Origin: an uncultured Actinomycetota bacterium
GTDB taxonomy: Bacteria; Actinomycetota; Actinomycetes; Prado026
Assembly: GCA_963711005.1 (NCBI GenBank)
Contig: CAVQCJ010000002.1
Location: 1,166,963 to 1,230,962 of the forward strand
Length of the DNA: 64,000 nucleotides
Direction: 5' to 3'
The notes under the pieces are model-generated. The model saw nothing but the letters and a program-made list of their open reading frames with translations, made no database searches and was not told the origin of the DNA. The position numbers and the translations under genes were made by a program. Position 1 is the stretch's first letter. The number at the start of each line of letters is the position of its first letter. This document shows, in pieces, positions 1 through 8,103 of this stretch.

Positions 1-326
1 TACACGTCGTTGGTCTCACCGCTGGCCATCGCGTTCATGGCCCTCGCCCTGCTGTGGCGCAACGACCGCGCGCGCCGCGGGGATCAGATCGGTCAGCCGC
101 CGCGCAGCGCCAGGTACCGCTCGCCGATCGTCGCGTAACTCGGCGTCGAACGAGCGGTCCCAGCAGAGGAACCCGCTGCTGGGATCGACCAGCCCAGCAT
201 CTCGACGTCGAGAGCCGAACCACGCCGTCGCCATGGGGGTCGGAATGGTCGGCCCTGGTGCCATCGCGACGGCAGTGCCAGACTCCCCCGGGGCCTCGCA
301 TCGTCCACGGCGACGGGAAGAAGAGC

Positions 327-842
327 ATGAGCGACGACAGCACCACCGCCGACGAGCCGGTTGCCGTCGAAGGGTCGCCGGAGCCGGCATCGACAGGCGA
401 GGTCGCCGCAGCCGCTGAGGACGCCACCGCGGACGAGGTCGCCGCCGCGCCGCCCCCGTCGGCGCCACCGCTGCGGCAGCAGAGCTCCGGGCGACTCGTC
501 GGGAAGGTCCGCAGCCCGATCGGCTGCTGGTTGCTGGCGATCATCACGCTCGGCATCTATGCGTTGGTCTGGTACCACCACACCAACAAGGAGCTGAAGG
601 AGTACGACCCGACGATCGTGGTGTCACCCGGAGTGGCGGTCGTCGCCCTGCTCGTCCCGGTCGTGAACTGGTTCTCGGTGTTCAACACCGGCAAGCGGAT
701 CCAGCAGGCGCAGCAGACCGCGGGGATCCCGGCGTCGGTCTCGCCCGGCCTCGGGGTCGTGCTGACGTTCGTCCTCGGTCTCTGGCTGCCGTACTACATC
801 TCGCAGACCAACGCCGTGTGGGAGTCCGCCGGCGCCCGCTGA
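327..842 (+). CDS. DUF4234-like small membrane protein with acidic N-terminal tail
   Basis: The C-terminal half of ORF 54..842 has two helix pairs around GIYALVWYHHTNKELKEY, as I recall for DUF4234. The in-frame ATG at 327 follows Arg-rich non-protein-like translation. Start uncertain. Confidence 0.6.
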   Translation: MSDDSTTADEPVAVEGSPEPASTGEVAAAAEDATADEVAAAPPPSAPPLRQQSSGRLVGKVRSPIGCWLLAIITLGIYALVWYHHTNKELKEYDPTIVVSPGVAVVALLVPVVNWFSVFNTGKRIQQAQQTAGIPASVSPGLGVVLTFVLGLWLPYYISQTNAVWESAGAR

Positions 843-855
843 GACGAAGGCCTGC

Positions 856-884
856 CGACGGACCGCACGTACGGTTGTCCGTCG
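856..884 (+). terminator. Hairpin downstream of the DUF4234 gene
   Basis: 8-bp stem CGACGGAC/GTCCGTCG with a 13-nt loop, 14 nt after the stop at 842. There is no T-tract, so function is uncertain. Confidence 0.3.
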
Positions 885-1055
885 TCCAGGACTACGGCTA
901 CGGCGTCAGGATGATGCTGGCCCCGAAACTGGCGTAGTAGGCGAGCTTCCCCGAGGGACGGGACCGCAGTTTGCCGTCCCTGTTAGCGTGATCGCGTGGG
1001 TGGACTCAGGGATGCCGTCCTCACCGGTTGTGCACCGGGAGCGGATTGCACGCAG

Positions 1056-1211
1056 ATGCCGACCGACGGTTGGGTCGGGTTCTGGTCGACCGTTCTCGGT
1101 CTGACTCTGCTCGTGGCTCTGGTCGTTGGTGGAGCGCTCGTTCTGGTCCGACGGCGGCGCAGCGTGACTCGCGGCGAACCGCAGCCCGCCGGCGGCGTCG
1201 CCGACGACTGA
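1056..1211 (+). CDS. Small single-pass membrane protein (51 aa), hypothetical
   Basis: In-frame ATG inside ORF 996..1211. One hydrophobic helix (FWSTVLGLTLLVALVVGGALVLV) is followed by RRRR. No family recognised. Confidence 0.3.
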   Translation: MPTDGWVGFWSTVLGLTLLVALVVGGALVLVRRRRSVTRGEPQPAGGVADD

Positions 1212-1703
1212 GCAGGTAAGCACTGTCGTAGGCACCAGTCTCGAAGACATGGAGTGAAGTACTCCCATCCGGAGGCACGCATCGGCTACGCCTCATCGCT
1301 GCGCGGGACGCCGAGCGTCGTCCGGTTGCGCAGCCGGCCCTGGTCTCAAACCGATTCGGCGGTCTTCCGGCGAACCACGCCGTGCCCACACCTCCCGGTC
1401 GCGCCGTCTACACCACCACCTCCGGGCTGGTATCCCGATCCGAGTGGGGCAGCCGCCCAGCGGTTGCCTGCCGGCCGCGCGGTTTGGGAGCGAAAACTGA
1501 TTGAAGTCACGTGCGGATCCCGGCACCATCGGTGCCATGAGGTGCCCAGCGCCCCGATTTCGCAGCCCCCGGATCACCGGTGGGCTGACCTGAGCATGCA
1601 CTGACTCAACTTCCAGCGCCTCGCAGCGCGGTTCTCGCCCCCGGTGTCCCCGGGGGCGATGTCGTTTCCGGACCCACCTTCAGACCGACTGCGAGGTACC
1701 AGC

Positions 1704-2900
1704 ATGTCCACCCTCGAACCCACCGGCACGCCCCCGTCGCTGCGGCAGGCGCTGGAGCTGCGTGACCTGACCGATCCTGCGGCGGGACCACACGCGGTCC
1801 AGCTCGTCGTGTCCTGGCTCGAGCAGGCACTGGCGCGCGCCTGGGCCGTTCCGGTGCGGCGCGACCCGGGTCCGCGGGTCGTGTCGGTCGCCGACAACTA
1901 CGACCGGCTCCGGTACTCCGCCGACGCAGCCACCCGGGACCGCCGGTACACCCGCTACGTCGGGGATGGGCTGATGCTGCGCTCGCACACCAGCGCCCGG
2001 ATCCCGGTCCTGCTGCGCGCGATCGCGACCACCGGCCCGGCCGAGCTGGTGCTCTCGGTGCCCGGCGTCTGCTACCGCCGAGACGTGATCGATCGCCAGC
2101 ATGTCGGCGAGCCGCACCAGCTCGACCTGTGGCTGGTCCGCCGCGACGGCCCGTTGCTGGGAGAGCCAGACCTGGAGGCGATGGTCGCCACGATTGTCGA
2201 CGCGGTTCTGCCGGGCCGGCACTGGCAGACCCCGCCCGCCGAGCACCCGTACACCCTGGCGGGCCGCGAGATCCACGTCGAGGCAGGTTCAGGGCCGGTC
2301 GAGGTCGGCGAGTGCGGCTTGGCACACCCCGAAGTGCTCGCCGACGCAGGCCTGCCGGCGGGTTCGTCCGGCCTAGCCATGGGTCTGGGTCTGGACCGGC
2401 TGGTCATGGTTGCCAAGGACGTGGACGACATCAGGCTGCTGCGCTCGACCGATCCCCGGGTCGCCACGCAGATGCTGGACCTGGCGCCGTACCGGCCGGT
2501 CTCGTCGATGCCGGCCGCACGACGTGACCTGTCGGTGGCGGTGCCCGCCGGCTGGGACGCGGAGCTGATCGGCGACCGGGTCCGTCACGTCCTCGGCCCG
2601 GACGCGGGCTGCGTGGAGGAGGTGCTGGTGCTGTCCGAGACCGTGTACGAGGACCTTCCCGACCCCGCTCGGGCCCGCATCGGCATAGCGCCGGGGCAGA
2701 AGAATGTGTTGGTGCGGCTGCTGCTGCGCGACCTGGCTCGAACGTTGTCGTCGGCGGATGCGAACCATCTGCGGGACCGGGTGTACGCCGGCCTGCATGA
2801 CGGCGAACGCAGCCAGTGGGCGGCAGCGTCGCCTTCAGGCCCGCCTCCCGGAGTGCTGGCGGCGGCTCCTGTCGAAGGTTGCGCCGGCTGGAAGCCCTAG
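1704..2900 (+). CDS. PheS-like class II aminoacyl-tRNA synthetase core fused to an FDX-ACB-like C-terminal domain (single-chain, mitochondrial-PheRS-like architecture)
   Basis: PheS-type motifs are present: LMLRSHTSA, motif 2 PGVCYRRDVIDRQHVGEPHQLDLW, motif 3 GLAMGLGLDRLVMVAKDVDDIRLL. The C-terminal about 110 aa begin PAARRDLSVAV and resemble a ferredoxin-fold anticodon-binding domain. ATG at 1704. No pheT-like gene is adjacent. Confidence 0.75.
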   Translation: MSTLEPTGTPPSLRQALELRDLTDPAAGPHAVQLVVSWLEQALARAWAVPVRRDPGPRVVSVADNYDRLRYSADAATRDRRYTRYVGDGLMLRSHTSARIPVLLRAIATTGPAELVLSVPGVCYRRDVIDRQHVGEPHQLDLWLVRRDGPLLGEPDLEAMVATIVDAVLPGRHWQTPPAEHPYTLAGREIHVEAGSGPVEVGECGLAHPEVLADAGLPAGSSGLAMGLGLDRLVMVAKDVDDIRLLRSTDPRVATQMLDLAPYRPVSSMPAARRDLSVAVPAGWDAELIGDRVRHVLGPDAGCVEEVLVLSETVYEDLPDPARARIGIAPGQKNVLVRLLLRDLARTLSSADANHLRDRVYAGLHDGERSQWAAASPSGPPPGVLAAAPVEGCAGWKP

Positions 2901-2984
2901 GGGTCTCACGGGAGGTCGGCACTCGACGCGGCAGCCGCGATGAACACACTCTGTACCGCGACAAGGCTCGAACGCGGGGCGGCC

Positions 2985-3818
2985 TCAGGCCTGTTCGACG
3001 TCCAGGGCGCCACGTGCCTGGACGTCGGCCTCGCTGATGGACAGGTAGCCGACGAGCGCGGCGATGACCAACCCGAACGCCAGCGCCACCCATCCACTGC
3101 CCAGGCCCAGGCCCTTGGCTGACGAGGGCTTGGCCAAGCCGTCGGCGATGGAAGCTCCCAGTGGGCGGGTGATGACGTAGGCGAACCAGAACGAGAACAC
3201 GGCGTTCCAGTGCGCCCAGCGGTAGCCGACCGCAGGTATCGCGATCACCACGGCGAAGATCACCGCCGACGGAAAGTACCCCAGGTGCAGGGTGTAGGCC
3301 GTGAAATCTCCCAATGCCGTGCCCATCGCGAAGGTGGCGACGACAGCGGCCCAGTAGAACAGCTCACGACGGGGCCGGTCGATGCTGTGAATCGACAGGG
3401 TGTGCTCGGTCCTCCGCCAGCTGATGAAGACAGCGGCCAGCACGACCGCATACAGGATGCTCGACCCGGTGTAAGGCACCCCGAAGCCCACATGCAGAAC
3501 GTCCGCCGCCATGGTCCCGAAGGTGCCCACCATGACCACTGCCAGCCAGTAGGTCCAGGCGACGTACCGCGCCATCCCGAACTGAAGCAGCAGCGCTACG
3601 ACGAACCCCGCGAAACCCAGCAGCACTGCGTCAACTGGGGGCATGGCGTGGACCAGGAAGTCCGACGTGGACTCACCCATCGCGGTCGACAAGCCCTTGA
3701 TCAGCCAGAACAGCGCCGTGATCTCAGGGACCCTCAGCGCGCCTCGGGTGGTCAACCAGCCCCTAATATCTGCTGCCGCCAACCGCGCCACCAGAGCACG
3801 ATACGACCGCCGGATCAA
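2985..3818 (-). CDS. Polytopic membrane protein with DUF347-type repeats (COG4705-like)
   Basis: Repeated helix-pair units carry G(E/D)xxxDF/ADG signatures (STAMGESTSDFL, GTALGDFTAY, RPLGASIADGL). Hydrophobic throughout. Confidence 0.7.
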   Translation of the reverse strand: MIRRSYRALVARLAAADIRGWLTTRGALRVPEITALFWLIKGLSTAMGESTSDFLVHAMPPVDAVLLGFAGFVVALLLQFGMARYVAWTYWLAVVMVGTFGTMAADVLHVGFGVPYTGSSILYAVVLAAVFISWRRTEHTLSIHSIDRPRRELFYWAAVVATFAMGTALGDFTAYTLHLGYFPSAVIFAVVIAIPAVGYRWAHWNAVFSFWFAYVITRPLGASIADGLAKPSSAKGLGLGSGWVALAFGLVIAALVGYLSISEADVQARGALDVEQA

Positions 3819-4048
3819 AGGACGGGGCCGCCCAAGTCAACGTTGAGTCAACACTGCAGGCCAGGCGACACCACCACGAACTCGCGGCCTGTCCATCTGC
3901 CCCCACGCCGACCTACTGCTGGTTCTCGGGCGTACAGCACGGCACATCTGAGCGGCTTGCAGGTGGACTTGGGTCGAACGGCCCTACCGCTGCCAACTCG
4001 CTTCCACTGGGCTGGTGGGGAACACCGTTCGGATGGAGGTGCGGTCCG

Positions 4049-4978
4049 ATGATTACCGACTCCACGCATACTCCGAGACGATCATTGGCCCTCTGGGCTG
4101 GATGGGTCGTCTTCGCGCTTCTCCTGATGCCGCTCATCGGACAGTGGGAGTGGCTCTTCCTGACCTGCGTGGCCGGCAGCGCCCTGCTGCTCAGCGTCGT
4201 GACCCGCCCGGCGCGACCAGAGGGCGACGGGTCATCACGCGACATCGCGATGATCGCTGTCTTCTACGTGGCGGTCGTCGCGCTGATGCGACTGGCGTTC
4301 GTCGTCTTCGGGACCGACCACATCCCAGGACTCTTCCTCAGCTTCGCGGGCGCACTGCTTGTCGGCGTCGTTGGCCCGGTTATCTACACCGTCTGGACCA
4401 GGGGCGGGTCACTGCATGACCTCGGGCTCCGGCGAGACAACTGGCAGACCACGGCGGTGCTGGCCGTGCTGTTCGCCGCCGTCCAGTTCGCGATCACCTT
4501 GCGGGGGTACGCGCTGCCGACCCCAGTCGACTGGGTGCCCCTGCTCGTGATGGCGCTCGTCGTCGGTGTTTTCGAGTCGATCTTCTTCCGCGGCTTCATC
4601 CAGAACCGGCTCGAGGCGAGCTTCGGCTCCCGTGTGGGTGTCGGTGGGGCCGCGCTGCTCTACGGCATCTACCACGTCGGGTACGGGATGGGGCTCACCG
4701 AGATCGCCTTCCTGACCGGTCTCGGCGTCACCTACGCCATCGCCTTCGCACTGGCCCGCAACGTGTTCGTGTTGTGGCCGTTGCTGACACCGCTCGGCTC
4801 GTTCTACGCCCAGCTCAAGGACGGGAACATTGAGCTGCCCTGGCCGTCGATCCTCGGCTTCGCCGATGTCACCGTGGTCATGATCGTGGCGTTCTGGATC
4901 GCCCACCGGCACGAGAAGAAGCGGGCGGCAGCACCGGCTCCATCGGAGCCTGTGAACTTGCACCACGTGCGCGCCTAA
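4049..4978 (+). CDS. CPBP (CAAX/Abi) family intramembrane metalloprotease
   Basis: Multi-TM protein with FESIFFRGFIQNRL (EExxxR-type motif 1 variant) and LLYGIYHVGYG (His motif). Confidence 0.75.
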   Translation: MITDSTHTPRRSLALWAGWVVFALLLMPLIGQWEWLFLTCVAGSALLLSVVTRPARPEGDGSSRDIAMIAVFYVAVVALMRLAFVVFGTDHIPGLFLSFAGALLVGVVGPVIYTVWTRGGSLHDLGLRRDNWQTTAVLAVLFAAVQFAITLRGYALPTPVDWVPLLVMALVVGVFESIFFRGFIQNRLEASFGSRVGVGGAALLYGIYHVGYGMGLTEIAFLTGLGVTYAIAFALARNVFVLWPLLTPLGSFYAQLKDGNIELPWPSILGFADVTVVMIVAFWIAHRHEKKRAAAPAPSEPVNLHHVRA

Positions 4979-5305
4979 TGCCGGATCGGGCGCTCGGGAC
5001 GGCCAAACAGAACGAAGCCTCTGTGTCTCAAGCGACCGCAAACCGGCGGGTGTCGCAGTCGTGCTGCGCTGTCTCCGACTGCCATCCCCTGCCGTCGCCA
5101 CTTCGAGCCGGCATTGGCAGCGGCACCGGTCTTAAGGATCTTGATCGCGAGGATCGCGCCACTTTCAGACCACCGCACAGCCCACCAGCGGCCTCGGTGC
5201 GCACTGCGAGGTCGGCGTTCACCTGCGCGACAGTGGGCCACTCAGTCACCATTGGCGCGCTCGCCCCGGTGGCCGGTATCCCCCGATCTAGCCATCGGGG
5301 CGGGT

Positions 5306-6265
5306 TCAGGCCACTGAGTCCTGAACTGCTCGGCTGAACTCCTCTCGGAACTGCAACGGCGCCAACCAGCGTGGGGGGATCGCATCCGCTCCGTGCAACG
5401 CGCCGAGCAGCCCACCAGCGATTGCCCCATTCGTGTCGGTGTCGTATCCAAGGCGGACGATGTCGATCAGGGCCGCCTCGAAACCCCTCTGGTCCTGCAG
5501 TGCGGAGACCGCAAGACTCAAAGAGTCAAGGACGTAGCCCGCTCCGGGGACATGCGTCACTCCTGTCTCCGCGGCGACGCTCAAAGTCAAGCTGGCGCCC
5601 ATGCGAAGCGCGTTGGCGACGCTGTTGCGCCCTGCCCTGGCTGCTGTGTCGATGCCTGCGTCGACAGCCTCGGCAACGGTCCTGCCTTCGATCAAGGCGG
5701 CGGCGACCTCGTTGTAGGCCGCGCACGCGATCGTGCACCGAGGGTCATCGTGCGTGATCGCAGAGATGGAGATGGACTCGGCAACCCGCCGCTCAGCGTT
5801 GCGGGTGAACACCGCCGTGGGGATGGCCCGCATCAAGGACCCGTTGCCCGCCTGCCCAACTCCAGCGCCGCAACTGTACGGGTCGCAGGTCCTGCCGTAT
5901 GTCCGCAGCGCTACGGCGGTGGCCCCGCCGACGTCATCCGGTCTGCTTCCCAGGACGCGACCTGGCCAGCTGCCCTCGAACCAGTCGAGCATGTAGTTGG
6001 CCGCATCCCGGACAAGGTCTCCGGTCATCGGCCGGGTGTAGGCCAGAACCACAGCGCGAGTCAGGTCGGTATCGTCGGTTGCATGACCAGCTGGCCAGCC
6101 AAAGGGGCCTCCCCCGACGATGTCGGTCAAGCCATGCGGGTACTGGTGCCTGATCGACGCCCAGTCACTGAACTCGAGGGTCGCTCCCAAGCAATCACCC
6201 ACGTGGACCCCAAGAAGAGCGCCTAACGCCCGATCCTCGCGCTCAGCCACACCACCTCCCGGCAC
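5306..6265 (-). CDS. ADP-ribosylglycohydrolase family protein (DraG/ARH-like)
   Basis: DRALGALLGVHVGDCLGATLEF, GHATDDTDLT, GNGSLMRAIP and YDTDTNGAIAGGLLGALHG are hallmark ARH metal-site motifs. Confidence 0.85.
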   Translation of the reverse strand: MPGGGVAEREDRALGALLGVHVGDCLGATLEFSDWASIRHQYPHGLTDIVGGGPFGWPAGHATDDTDLTRAVVLAYTRPMTGDLVRDAANYMLDWFEGSWPGRVLGSRPDDVGGATAVALRTYGRTCDPYSCGAGVGQAGNGSLMRAIPTAVFTRNAERRVAESISISAITHDDPRCTIACAAYNEVAAALIEGRTVAEAVDAGIDTAARAGRNSVANALRMGASLTLSVAAETGVTHVPGAGYVLDSLSLAVSALQDQRGFEAALIDIVRLGYDTDTNGAIAGGLLGALHGADAIPPRWLAPLQFREEFSRAVQDSVA

Positions 6266-6290
6266 ACCGACTCCTCACCGGCCCGCCCGC

Positions 6291-6836
6291 TCAGTCAGCA
6301 GTCTCGGCCCAGATCCCTTGGACGATCCCCTCCAGGTCCCACAGCATGCTCGGCTCCAGACCCCTGGCCCAATACTGATCTGGGGTGCGTTTGATGACCC
6401 CCGGTAGTAGATCCTGAACTCGTCGTCCGCCTCGGAACCGATCCGCTTCTGCGGCGGCCGGTCGTCGTCTTCACCGACCGCCGGGTCTACCCGACCGCCG
6501 TGCACGCCCGGAAGACTCCTCGAGGACGTTCACCGTGAATAGATAGTTGGGCGATCCGAACGGCGGCAACGCGGGCGAAGTGGTGATGGTCGAGTAGACG
6601 GAAAGGCCAGCGTCCCTGAACACACGCCCGTAAGCGAACCGCCCATCGAGGAGGTCGATCTGCACCACCTCACCGACGGACGGCTCGACTCGCTTCCGCG
6701 CCCGCAGACGCTGACGAGCGGGCTGCACACCCGTCAGCTGCTCGCGAACCTCGTCGAGCACGGCAACCCGCTTCGCAAGCAGCTTCGGATTCTCCCGCCA
6801 GCGATCCATGCCATCTCCGTCGTCGATCGCCGCCAA
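6291..6836 (-). pseudogene. Immunity-protein-like gene (Imm26-like by recollection) split over three frames
   Basis: Frame a (6836..6471) gives ...VGEVVQIDLLDGRFAYGRVFRD...NYLFTVNVLEESSG. Frame b (from 6505) gives VDPAVGEDDDRPPQKRIGSEADDEFRIYY. Frame c, read by hand, gives GVIKRTPDQYWARGLEPSMLWDLEGIVQGIWAETAD-stop at 6291. The second shift lies in the C5 run at 6398-6402. Confidence 0.5.
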
Positions 6837-6884
6837 CGCGCGTTCGCGAACACGCGGCCTCCTCGTCGCAGACCCCGTCTCCGA

Positions 6885-7007
6885 TCAGCTCCCGATAGTC
6901 CTGCCGAACATCACAGGCAAGGCCACTCCGGCTGCCACCAGCACGACAGCAAGGAACAGCCGAGACAGGGCAATCCTCGGGGCGAGGCGGTAGGTGGTCG
7001 ACTCCAT
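6885..7007 (-). CDS. Possible 40-aa membrane peptide
   Basis: Hand translation: MESTTYRLAPRIALSRLFLAVVLVAAGVALPVMFGRTIGS. It starts 20 nt after the stop of the opine dehydrogenase gene. Too short for the ORF track and has no homology support. Confidence 0.2.
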   Translation of the reverse strand: MESTTYRLAPRIALSRLFLAVVLVAAGVALPVMFGRTIGS

Positions 7008-7026
7008 AGCAGCCCCTAACTCGCGG

Positions 7027-8103
7027 TCAGTACACCGCGAGCTGTTCTCGCGTCAGGCCGGACAGGCCCATCTTGTCCATCGTGCGGGCACGCTGAGCGG
7101 CGAAGTCTTCGCCCGCGACGATCGAGGCGATGCGGATGACGGCGTCCATCGTGGGGGTCGGCACCGACAGGTGCTGAGCCAGGTCGGTGAGGAACACCAT
7201 CGAGTAGCCCACGTCCTCGGTCAGGTAGCGGTGATGGAGCTCGTCCTGCGCCTTGATGCCGCGAAAGCCTGGTGCGGTGGAGTAGCCGGTGGAGTAGTTG
7301 GACTCGGTCATGTAGCCCTGCCGAACCCCGAGATCCGGCTCGGTGAGGATTGTCACGCCCAAGGCTCGGGCGACGGAGAGCCGTTCGTCGTCGACCGCCT
7401 TCATGAAGCGACCGACCGCCTCGGTCACCCCTTCCTCATAGAACATGAAGTCACCACCCGTGCGTTCGATGAGGGCGGCGTTGAGCAAGGTGACGGCCGG
7501 ATGGATGACCGGGTTGCCGTTCTGCAGCGTGGTCTGGAAGATCCCCGCGGCTTCTTCGGCGTTGCGGTACACCTGCCGCAGGACCTCGAGCAGGCGAGGT
7601 GTGTTGCTGCGCGGGGCGGCAGCGGCCGAGAAGCCGGTGTCGAACCGGTGGAAGATCCGCACACTGGCGTGCATCGATGCGCGTGCGGCGTACGGCAGCG
7701 TGCTGGTCTCGCCCACGACGACACTCTCGTCATGGAGGTCCAACCCCGCGGCGTGCTTGAAGGCCAGACTGCCGACGCACGAGCTGGGGCAGACCACGAC
7801 GGTCATCCCGGGGCGAAGGTGACCGCGAGTGTCAAGGCCGAACGGCTCCGTGGCATAGGCGGGGCCGACGACGAAGACCGCGTCCACACCGTCCAGCGCC
7901 TCGGCGATGTTGGTGGTGACTGTCTCCAGGGGGACGAACCCCTCAAGCACGCCCTCGGCCTGGATACCGCCGCGTTCGCGGACCGGCGCCAGATGGTGCT
8001 CATGCGCATGTTGTGCGTACAGCGCGACCTCATGCCCCTGACTGGCCCACTCGTAGGCCAGCGCCAGCCCTCCACCGCCGGCCCCTAGCACGGCGATCCT
8101 CAT
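7027..8103 (-). CDS. NAD(P)-dependent opine (octopine/nopaline) dehydrogenase family protein
   Basis: N-terminal Rossmann motif MRIAVLGAGGGGLALA. Length and the C-terminal helical domain (LTEDVGYSMVFLTDLA..VPTPTMDAVI) are typical of the family. Confidence 0.8.
   Translation of the reverse strand: MRIAVLGAGGGGLALAYEWASQGHEVALYAQHAHEHHLAPVRERGGIQAEGVLEGFVPLETVTTNIAEALDGVDAVFVVGPAYATEPFGLDTRGHLRPGMTVVVCPSSCVGSLAFKHAAGLDLHDESVVVGETSTLPYAARASMHASVRIFHRFDTGFSAAAAPRSNTPRLLEVLRQVYRNAEEAAGIFQTTLQNGNPVIHPAVTLLNAALIERTGGDFMFYEEGVTEAVGRFMKAVDDERLSVARALGVTILTEPDLGVRQGYMTESNYSTGYSTAPGFRGIKAQDELHHRYLTEDVGYSMVFLTDLAQHLSVPTPTMDAVIRIASIVAGEDFAAQRARTMDKMGLSGLTREQLAVY

Follow-up and report, generated by a model that had tools for sequence, protein, structure and literature searches.

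A phenylalanine-free PheS-like protein encoded behind a predicted phenylalanine-codon attenuator in an uncultured actinomycete

We analyzed a 64,000-nucleotide stretch of the genome of an uncultured Actinomycetota bacterium (contig CAVQCJ010000002.1 of assembly GCA_963711005.1; hereafter the window), in which the gene srmL (1704-2900, plus strand) encodes a single-chain protein related to PheS, the alpha subunit of phenylalanyl-tRNA synthetase (PheRS). The encoded protein, SrmL, has 398 residues and no phenylalanine, and the gene is preceded by a short leader open reading frame (ORF) with a single phenylalanine codon and by RNA segments with mutually exclusive pairings. On balance, and with moderate confidence, we interpret SrmL as an auxiliary PheRS, possibly inhibitor resistant, that is induced by a shortage of charged tRNA-Phe. 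Family membership, fold, paralogue status, phenylalanine-free composition, leader ORF, alternative pairings and portability of the cassette were all established by computation.

Results

At the mean phenylalanine content of the long ORFs of the genome (2.7%), about 10.7 phenylalanine residues would be expected in the window SrmL, which has none; the canonical PheS of the same genome has 16. Among 120 close SrmL homologues, 94 had no phenylalanine and 22 had one. The phenylalanine count was bimodal in 60 full-length representatives (clusters at 50% identity), about half of which had 0 to 2 and the rest 8 to 24. The group with 0 to 2 includes lysine-rich, low-GC members, and SrmL members from a metagenome scan, on contigs of 27 to 37% GC in which phenylalanine codons are expected to be common, likewise had no phenylalanine in about 366 residues. 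SrmL proteins carry tyrosine at positions where relatives have phenylalanine. A quick tree was rooted by the genome's own PheS, a single long outgroup branch that leaves the root uncertain. On this tree, the phenylalanine-containing members branched first, and one large derived clade was phenylalanine free in 34 of 38 rows. The tree required at least 5 changes between the phenylalanine-free and phenylalanine-containing states, compared with 18 for shuffled labels.

The predicted leader ORF upstream of srmL (1537-1593, plus strand) has 18 codons and would encode MRCPAPRFRSPRITGGLT before its stop codon. It has the attributes of an attenuator leader, a short reading frame with a codon for the regulating amino acid, and its only phenylalanine codon is TTT at codon 8 (1558-1560). 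Equivalent ORFs are found at related loci. A short leader with the consensus ..RF(x)xPRxTGG.. followed by a stop codon could be recognized at 17 of 23 genome loci, and TTT followed by GCCCCCGG...CCGGTGGGC was present in all 23. The TTT codon was invariant in the 21 loci of alignment A1, in 20 of which the start codon lies 21 nucleotides before the phenylalanine codon, though the sequence between them varies. TTT accounts for 0.76% of the phenylalanine codons of the genome (152 vs 19,917), and the genome has one tRNA-Phe(GAA) only. Three further Actinomycetota loci, all from one actinobacterial family (L032, L033 and L038), have a matching leader in which R-F-R-x-P is kept and TTC replaces TTT. 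The leader motif had no other occurrence in the genome, and a search of window positions 1 to 6000 against Rfam gave no match at an E value of 1 or less, to Phe_leader or to any other family.

The known phenylalanine attenuators of enterobacteria are the pheM leader of pheST and the pheL leader of pheA, represented in Rfam by Phe_leader. The likeness lies in a leader peptide with phenylalanine codons that feeds a terminator/antiterminator switch before a gene for PheRS or for the phenylalanine pathway. The enterobacterial leaders have a run of phenylalanine codons, whereas the srmL leader has a single rare TTT and an extra helix that involves an anti-Shine-Dalgarno segment.

Downstream of the sensor codon, all on the plus strand, lie four segments that could form an RNA switch. 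Segment 1 (GCCCCCGG, 1565-1572) pairs with segment 2 (CCGGTGGGC, 1577-1585); a ribosome that stalls at TTT would cover segment 1. Segment 2 can pair instead with segment 3 (TCGCCCCCGG, 1635-1644) to give an antiterminator. Segment 3 is also the 5' arm of a terminator-like site (1635-1669), of which segment 4 (CCGGGGGCGA, 1650-1659) is the 3' arm; the stem has 10 bp, 9 of them G-C pairs, and is followed by the T-containing tail TGTCGTTTCC. The calculated duplex energies were -21.0 kcal/mol for segments 1 and 2, -24.4 kcal/mol for segments 2 and 3, and -24.3 kcal/mol for segments 3 and 4; the energy of the terminator stem was -22.7 kcal/mol. In addition, the anti-Shine-Dalgarno segment CCTCGCAG (1619-1626) is complementary to the ribosome-binding site region of srmL (CTGCGAGG, 1689-1696), and the two pair in the minimum-energy, terminator-state fold, so that the ribosome-binding site is masked there. 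The pattern GCCCCCGG-loop-CCGGGGGC with a T-rich tail, the terminator, recurs in 21 loci, and GCGAGG is located 4 to 13 nucleotides upstream of the start codon at most loci.

Nascent transcripts ending after segment 3 were then folded for the 21 loci, either free or with the footprint of a TTT-stalled ribosome masked. In the free transcripts, segments 1 and 2 paired at 21 of 21 loci, leaving segment 3 available for the terminator. With the stalled ribosome masked, segment 3 paired with segment 2 through 7 or 8 of its 7 to 9 bases at 19 loci and through 4 bases at the other 2. When the ribosome was placed at the leader stop codon in the window, the 3:4 terminator formed. Over the free, stalled and at-stop states, folding followed the model at 21 of 21 loci. 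Computationally, therefore, terminator and antiterminator are mutually exclusive and are chosen by the position of the ribosome. However, the full leader folded to equilibrium with a stalled ribosome still favored the terminator, so that the switch model works only co-transcriptionally.

Covariation was scored in an alignment not fitted to any structure. The helix of segments 1 and 2 had 86.6% of cells paired. The helix between the anti-Shine-Dalgarno segment and the ribosome-binding site had 84.7%, with both sides changing in 4 of its 9 pairs. The terminator-state helices together had 83.7% of cells paired, compared with 38 to 56% when slid, and their covariation score was 0.115 vs 0.071 for shuffled alignments, with none of 500 shuffles reaching 0.115. 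For the antiterminator, 84.1% of cells were paired, compared with 35 to 57% when slid. Because the stems are nearly invariant, compensatory changes are few and true covariation is modest. The strongest argument for the switch is the conservation of its four-part logic within otherwise diverged sequence.

At two Hamadaea loci (L022:9864-9994 and L024:1392-1522), the TTT leader is retained together with segments 1 and 2, but the GC-rich terminator is missing. A different hairpin seems to mask a GGAGG ribosome-binding site at these loci, which suggests that control there may be purely translational.

The low-GC loci that encode phenylalanine-free SrmL have unrelated upstream sequences, yet these too contain short phenylalanine-rich ORFs followed by hairpins. 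The leaders at these loci include MNKYFTYFFFTSFR, MNNLSFNFFSFFMGEKS and MESDFTHFRSFTT, each ending at a stop codon, and a 32-codon ORF with 8 phenylalanines. We regard the low-GC leaders as supporting evidence only, because AT-rich DNA may yield some by chance. No phenylalanine-rich leader was seen at the loci of two phenylalanine-containing members (11 and 8 phenylalanines).

In four non-redundant metagenome loci, srmL directly adjoins arrays with tRNA-Phe(GAA) genes. Three of them have two to five annotated tRNA-Phe(GAA) copies upstream of srmL: two arrays alternate tRNA-Asp(GTC) and tRNA-Phe(GAA) (L049:1230-2380 and L056:1341-2382), and the third holds Tyr, Glu and Phe tRNAs (L055:51-738). 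The fourth array is mixed (L079:103-3955), with one tRNA-Phe gene on each side of srmL.

The protein scored 489.4 bits (cut-off, 300) with the NCBIfam equivalog model NF051887, "PheS-related mystery ligase SrmL", over the whole profile (positions 1 to 349 of 349), and a whole-genome DNA search gave the same match. It shares the family signature YRRD, PHQxDxW, HPYT and GLAMGLGLDRL, and structurally it departs from the family only by a 21-residue read-through tail at the C terminus. By this sequence evidence, srmL is a typical member of an already curated, uncharacterized family and is, as a gene, not novel. The model assigns no function, and its name and description as displayed are silent on the phenylalanine-free composition and on a phenylalanine-codon attenuator. 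Our literature search returned no paper on SrmL, on PheS or PheRS paralogues, or on bacterial PheRS of a monomeric or mitochondrial type. PheRS goes unmentioned in a 2022 review devoted to duplicated synthetases (PMC9437257), whose list therefore holds no PheRS paralogue.

The host assembly (3.9 Mb in 7 contigs, 89% complete, 69% GC) also contains a canonical pheS (323 bits) followed directly by pheT (597 bits), at positions 303234 to 306520 of contig C6, a different contig from that of srmL, and this pheT is the only one in the genome. Since canonical pheS-pheT exist elsewhere, srmL is an extra copy, as the sequence-only reading had proposed when it took the gene for a paralogue and called for a search for the canonical pair. 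The opposite possibility, that srmL encodes the housekeeping PheRS of the cell, draws on homology alone and is contradicted by the intact pheS-pheT. SrmL scored below the cut-offs of both PheS models, with 83.9 bits against 237 for bacterial pheS (TIGR00468) and 96.5 bits against 258 for mitochondrial pheS_mito (TIGR00469). Moreover, searches of two other same-genus genomes and nine same-family genomes did not find srmL in one of the former (G002, which is 82% complete) or in any of the latter. We thus rejected the housekeeping role on the grounds of the canonical pair and the apparent lack of srmL in most searched relatives, and give it practically no credence.

The longest open frame at the srmL site runs from 1644 to 2900 (plus strand). 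The start codon is likely ATG at 1704, because a GAGG ribosome-binding site lies 8 nucleotides upstream (1693-1696) and the strong hairpin at 1635-1659 precedes it. The G+C content at third codon positions (GC3) is 0.86, which fits coding sequence and is usual for genes of this genome. Residues 56 to 256 (nucleotides 1869-2471, plus strand) matched the PheS-type catalytic core, Pfam tRNA-synt_2d, with an E value of 3.7e-28. Residues 267 to 364 (2502-2795, plus strand), starting at PAARRDLSVAV, matched the Pfam FDX-ACB domain; this match was sub-threshold here (22.6 vs 31.1 bits), and the domain was detected at an E value below 1e-3 in 44 of 59 SrmL family members. Motif 2 (YRRD...HQLD) and motif 3 (GLAMGLGLDRL) of class II synthetases are both present, each with its arginine.

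An AlphaFold2 model of SrmL, built from a 59-sequence alignment, had a predicted local distance difference test score (pLDDT) of 92.5 and a predicted template modeling score of 0.89. Its top structural matches were human mitochondrial PheRS structures (template modeling score of 0.71 over 393 columns for 3CMQ), whereas bacterial PheS alpha chains superposed on the core only. Pfam, motifs and model thus agree with the earlier description from sequence of a single-chain PheS-like protein with class II motifs 2 and 3 and an FDX-ACB-like tail. The mitochondrial PheRS layout that had been assigned to it was also borne out, as the model superposes on 3CMQ from end to end.

Mitochondrial PheRS (FARS2; 3CMQ and 3TUP) resembles SrmL in combining a class II PheS core and a C-terminal FDX-ACB domain in one chain, and it is the best sequence match to SrmL among solved structures (E value of 5e-14). 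However, the identity is only 22%; FARS2 keeps FPFT and HQLE where SrmL has HPYT and HQLD, and SrmL is bacterial, phenylalanine free and under predicted attenuator control. With the bacterial alpha subunit, SrmL has its catalytic fold in common, as well as motifs 2 and 3, but the alignment to TIGR00468 begins at profile position 150. The N-terminal coiled coil, an adjacent beta subunit and the editing module are all lacking in SrmL. The absence of the coiled coil and of an adjoining beta-subunit gene had been noted from the sequence alone, and it held: no pheT was present in the first 10 kb of neighbors.

The 21-residue C-terminal extension (2835-2897, plus strand; alignment A4) is specific to this genome. 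The window has TCA (Ser) at 2835-2837 where a congener has a TGA stop codon, and the frame continues to TAG at 2898-2900; the congener SrmL (P0002) has 377 residues. The tail is poorly modeled, with a pLDDT below 50 at residues 384 to 398.

The loss of the ancestral stop codon in the window copy, together with the patchy distribution of the gene and split-looking copies in two genomes (G118 and G133), could indicate that srmL is a decaying or noncatalytic remnant whose phenylalanine-free composition and upstream structures are incidental. On the other hand, 61 to 72% protein identity is kept across several actinobacterial families, every catalytic motif is preserved, the model has high confidence, the GC3 is 0.86, and phenylalanine avoidance and the leader recur in distant lineages. 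We therefore consider a remnant very improbable.

The residues that bind ATP and phenylalanine gave a divided result. The sequence-only reading had made its case depend on their conservation, and the ATP-binding part stood: R125 and R232, the arginines through which motifs 2 and 3 bind ATP, show no variation in alignment A2, and the HTS residues are kept. The phenylalanine-binding part did not, since the wall residues are replaced throughout the family. In the amino acid pocket of SrmL, FPFT is changed to HPYT, so that two phenylalanine walls become histidine and tyrosine, and HQxE is changed to HQxD; the glutamate of HQxE binds the amino group of the substrate. Because HPYT and HQxD occur in the phenylalanine-containing, basal-branching members as well, we rejected the idea that the pocket changes are a by-product of phenylalanine avoidance. 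Only one position tracks phenylalanine content, that of motif 2 at which a phenylalanine stacks on adenine in class II enzymes; it is proline in phenylalanine-free SrmL and phenylalanine in several phenylalanine-containing members. The threonine (xPxT) and alanine (GxAxG) of the pocket floor are kept in SrmL. We take these to be equivalent to T251 and A294 of E. coli PheS, in which the pocket floor restricts substituents at the para position. The FDX-ACB domain keeps the tyrosine of the canonical FDVY, whereas its aspartate is changed to threonine and the serine of KSLA to asparagine; in canonical PheT, this aspartate and serine contact G34.

The pocket changes raise the possibility that SrmL is induced by a shortage of Phe-tRNA and loads tRNA-Phe with another amino acid, tyrosine being the obvious candidate, thereby freeing stalled ribosomes by deliberate substitution. 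More polar pocket walls (histidine and tyrosine for two phenylalanines, aspartate for glutamate) in the whole family, phenylalanine-containing members included, would suit such a role, as would the lack of an editing domain and the use of tyrosine in SrmL proteins where relatives have phenylalanine. Against it, the floor threonine and alanine, which limit para-substituents in E. coli PheRS, are kept, and mis-incorporation across the proteome would be costly. We regard deliberate substitution as rather unlikely.

The SrmL family is large, with at least 5,586 cluster representatives at an E value of 1e-10 or less among the 8,000 candidates examined, and the close relatives of the window protein, those at 61 to 72% identity, come from Micromonosporaceae, Pseudonocardiaceae and Sporichthyaceae. 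The gene was found in 7 of 401 Actinomycetota genomes, the window's own included, and among 40 relatives searched it exceeded the family cut-off in one, a same-genus genome. The split-looking copies match in two pieces (G118:C318:11812-12848 and G133:C9:83119-84184; loci L036 to L039), and one of them has an internal TGA; both are possibly frameshifted or decaying.

Comparison with the same-genus genome G001 (locus L009) showed that the likeness is confined to 1464-2868, at 95% nucleotide identity, and that the flanks are unrelated. In the congener G002, pieces of the window flanks are scattered over different contigs and srmL had no match. Leader and gene thus form a cassette of 1.4 kb within a region that varies. 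The earlier impression of an accessory block holds up in this comparison, with the flanks scattered or absent in congeners. The upstream part of the cassette (1464-1536, plus strand), before which nothing is shared with G001, presumably contains the promoter along with a weak ribosome-binding site for the leader ORF; no sigma-70-type consensus site was found. Nor were convincing transposon-like or mobile-element repeats found around the cassette.

Clustering of ORFs across the 23 loci revealed no conserved neighbor beyond close relatives; neither an operon partner nor a carrier protein nor a biosynthetic cluster emerged. This bears on the possibility that SrmL uses its adenylate chemistry on an acceptor other than tRNA during the response to phenylalanine starvation, be it a small molecule, a carrier protein or another protein, as EpmA/PoxA does with elongation factor P. 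Many aminoacyl-tRNA synthetase paralogues have roles other than tRNA charging (PMC9437257), and SrmL departs from PheRS in its pocket and at the residues presumed to contact the anticodon. However, no partner gene is conserved in the 23 loci, the FDX-ACB domain is kept, the model fits mitochondrial PheRS over its whole length, tRNA-Phe arrays adjoin srmL in several lineages, and EpmA models reached E values of only 0.16 to 0.26. A non-tRNA acceptor is, in our judgment, unlikely.

The surroundings of srmL (window positions 1 to 8000) are a mosaic among congeners. A DUF4234 gene (251-917) and a DUF347 gene (2975-3860) each have a 91% identical counterpart in G002, on separate contigs, and have no match in G001; only part of a CAAX-protease-like gene (4256-4914) matches G001, at 71 to 75% identity. 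Farther downstream, on the minus strand, are genes for an ADP-ribosylglycohydrolase (5306-6265; PF03747, E value of 2e-65) and an opine/octopine dehydrogenase-like protein (7027-8103; PF02317, E value of 2e-41), neither of which is linked to srmL at other loci.

Discussion

Regulation, composition and tRNA-Phe neighbors together point to tRNA-Phe as the acceptor of SrmL and to scarce charged tRNA-Phe as its setting, while the rebuilt pocket would leave the amino acid open. That attenuation actually operates, and that Phe-tRNA-Phe is the product, is what we infer under the auxiliary PheRS interpretation. In this model, the short leader ORF would be translated. With ample charged tRNA-Phe, the ribosome would clear the rare TTT codon, reach the leader stop codon and cover segment 2, the terminator of segments 3 and 4 would form, and the anti-Shine-Dalgarno segment would mask the srmL ribosome-binding site. 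When charged tRNA-Phe is scarce, the ribosome would stall at TTT and cover segment 1, segments 2 and 3 would pair, and this pairing would block the terminator, so that srmL would be transcribed and translated. Since SrmL has no phenylalanine, it could be translated during the shortage of Phe-tRNA, a state in which only phenylalanine-free proteins could be produced. It would then most likely charge tRNA-Phe, and it might be insensitive to something that blocks the canonical alpha2-beta2 enzyme (such as a natural inhibitor or a phenylalanine analogue) or might be a better scavenger of phenylalanine. Resistance to an inhibitor or analogue is quite plausible because a second enzyme pays off most once the principal one has been disabled.

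Several observations weigh against this interpretation. The rebuilt pocket could mean a different amino acid, two residues presumed to contact G34 are altered, and SrmL lacks an editing domain. Only one regulatory codon is present in the leader, the near-invariant helices give modest covariation, and the window's terminator has a weak T tail. The family is rare among the Actinomycetota genomes, and two of its copies look split.

Among the roles that had been offered from the sequence alone, the phenylalanine-codon attenuator and the phenylalanine-free protein favor a spare or resistant synthetase. An amino-acid:carrier ligase or a function in secondary metabolism found no support, and both are disfavored because no neighbor is conserved across the 23 loci. 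A role in making a phenylalanine-consuming product is also unlikely, because the enzyme would be induced when Phe-tRNA is scarce.

The closest precedent comes from another actinomycete. TrpRS1 of Streptomyces coelicolor is an indolmycin-resistant second tryptophanyl-tRNA synthetase (PMC9437257, Table 1). It differs from SrmL in its amino acid and in its synthetase class. TrpRS1 is reportedly under ribosome-mediated attenuation (Vecchione & Sello 2010, as cited in PMC4787780, reference 57); if so, it resembles SrmL as a second synthetase in an actinomycete that is induced through a leader peptide with codons for its own amino acid. To our knowledge, TrpRS1 has not been described as free of its cognate amino acid.

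More tentatively, and with less confidence than in the auxiliary PheRS itself, srmL may be a portable "bootstrap" cassette, a phenylalanine-purged synthetase that could be translated even after a collapse of Phe-tRNA-Phe, as when a natural PheRS inhibitor or a toxic phenylalanine analogue disables the canonical enzyme, and whose rebuilt pocket would make it insensitive to that agent. If this were true, the cassette would be a new, self-inducing form of tolerance to synthetase-targeted antibiotics that spreads horizontally among soil bacteria, and SrmL would be the clearest known case of complete avoidance of the cognate amino acid in a protein.

The predicted srmL attenuator represents a new leader RNA without an Rfam counterpart. 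The phenylalanine-free proteins and the phenylalanine-codon attenuator give the "mystery ligase" a concrete physiological setting, a shortage of charged tRNA-Phe. If the function is confirmed, a bacterial monomeric PheRS would join the list of auxiliary synthetases, avoidance of a cognate amino acid would be documented in an extreme form, and the enzyme may provide a natural route of tolerance to compounds that target PheRS.

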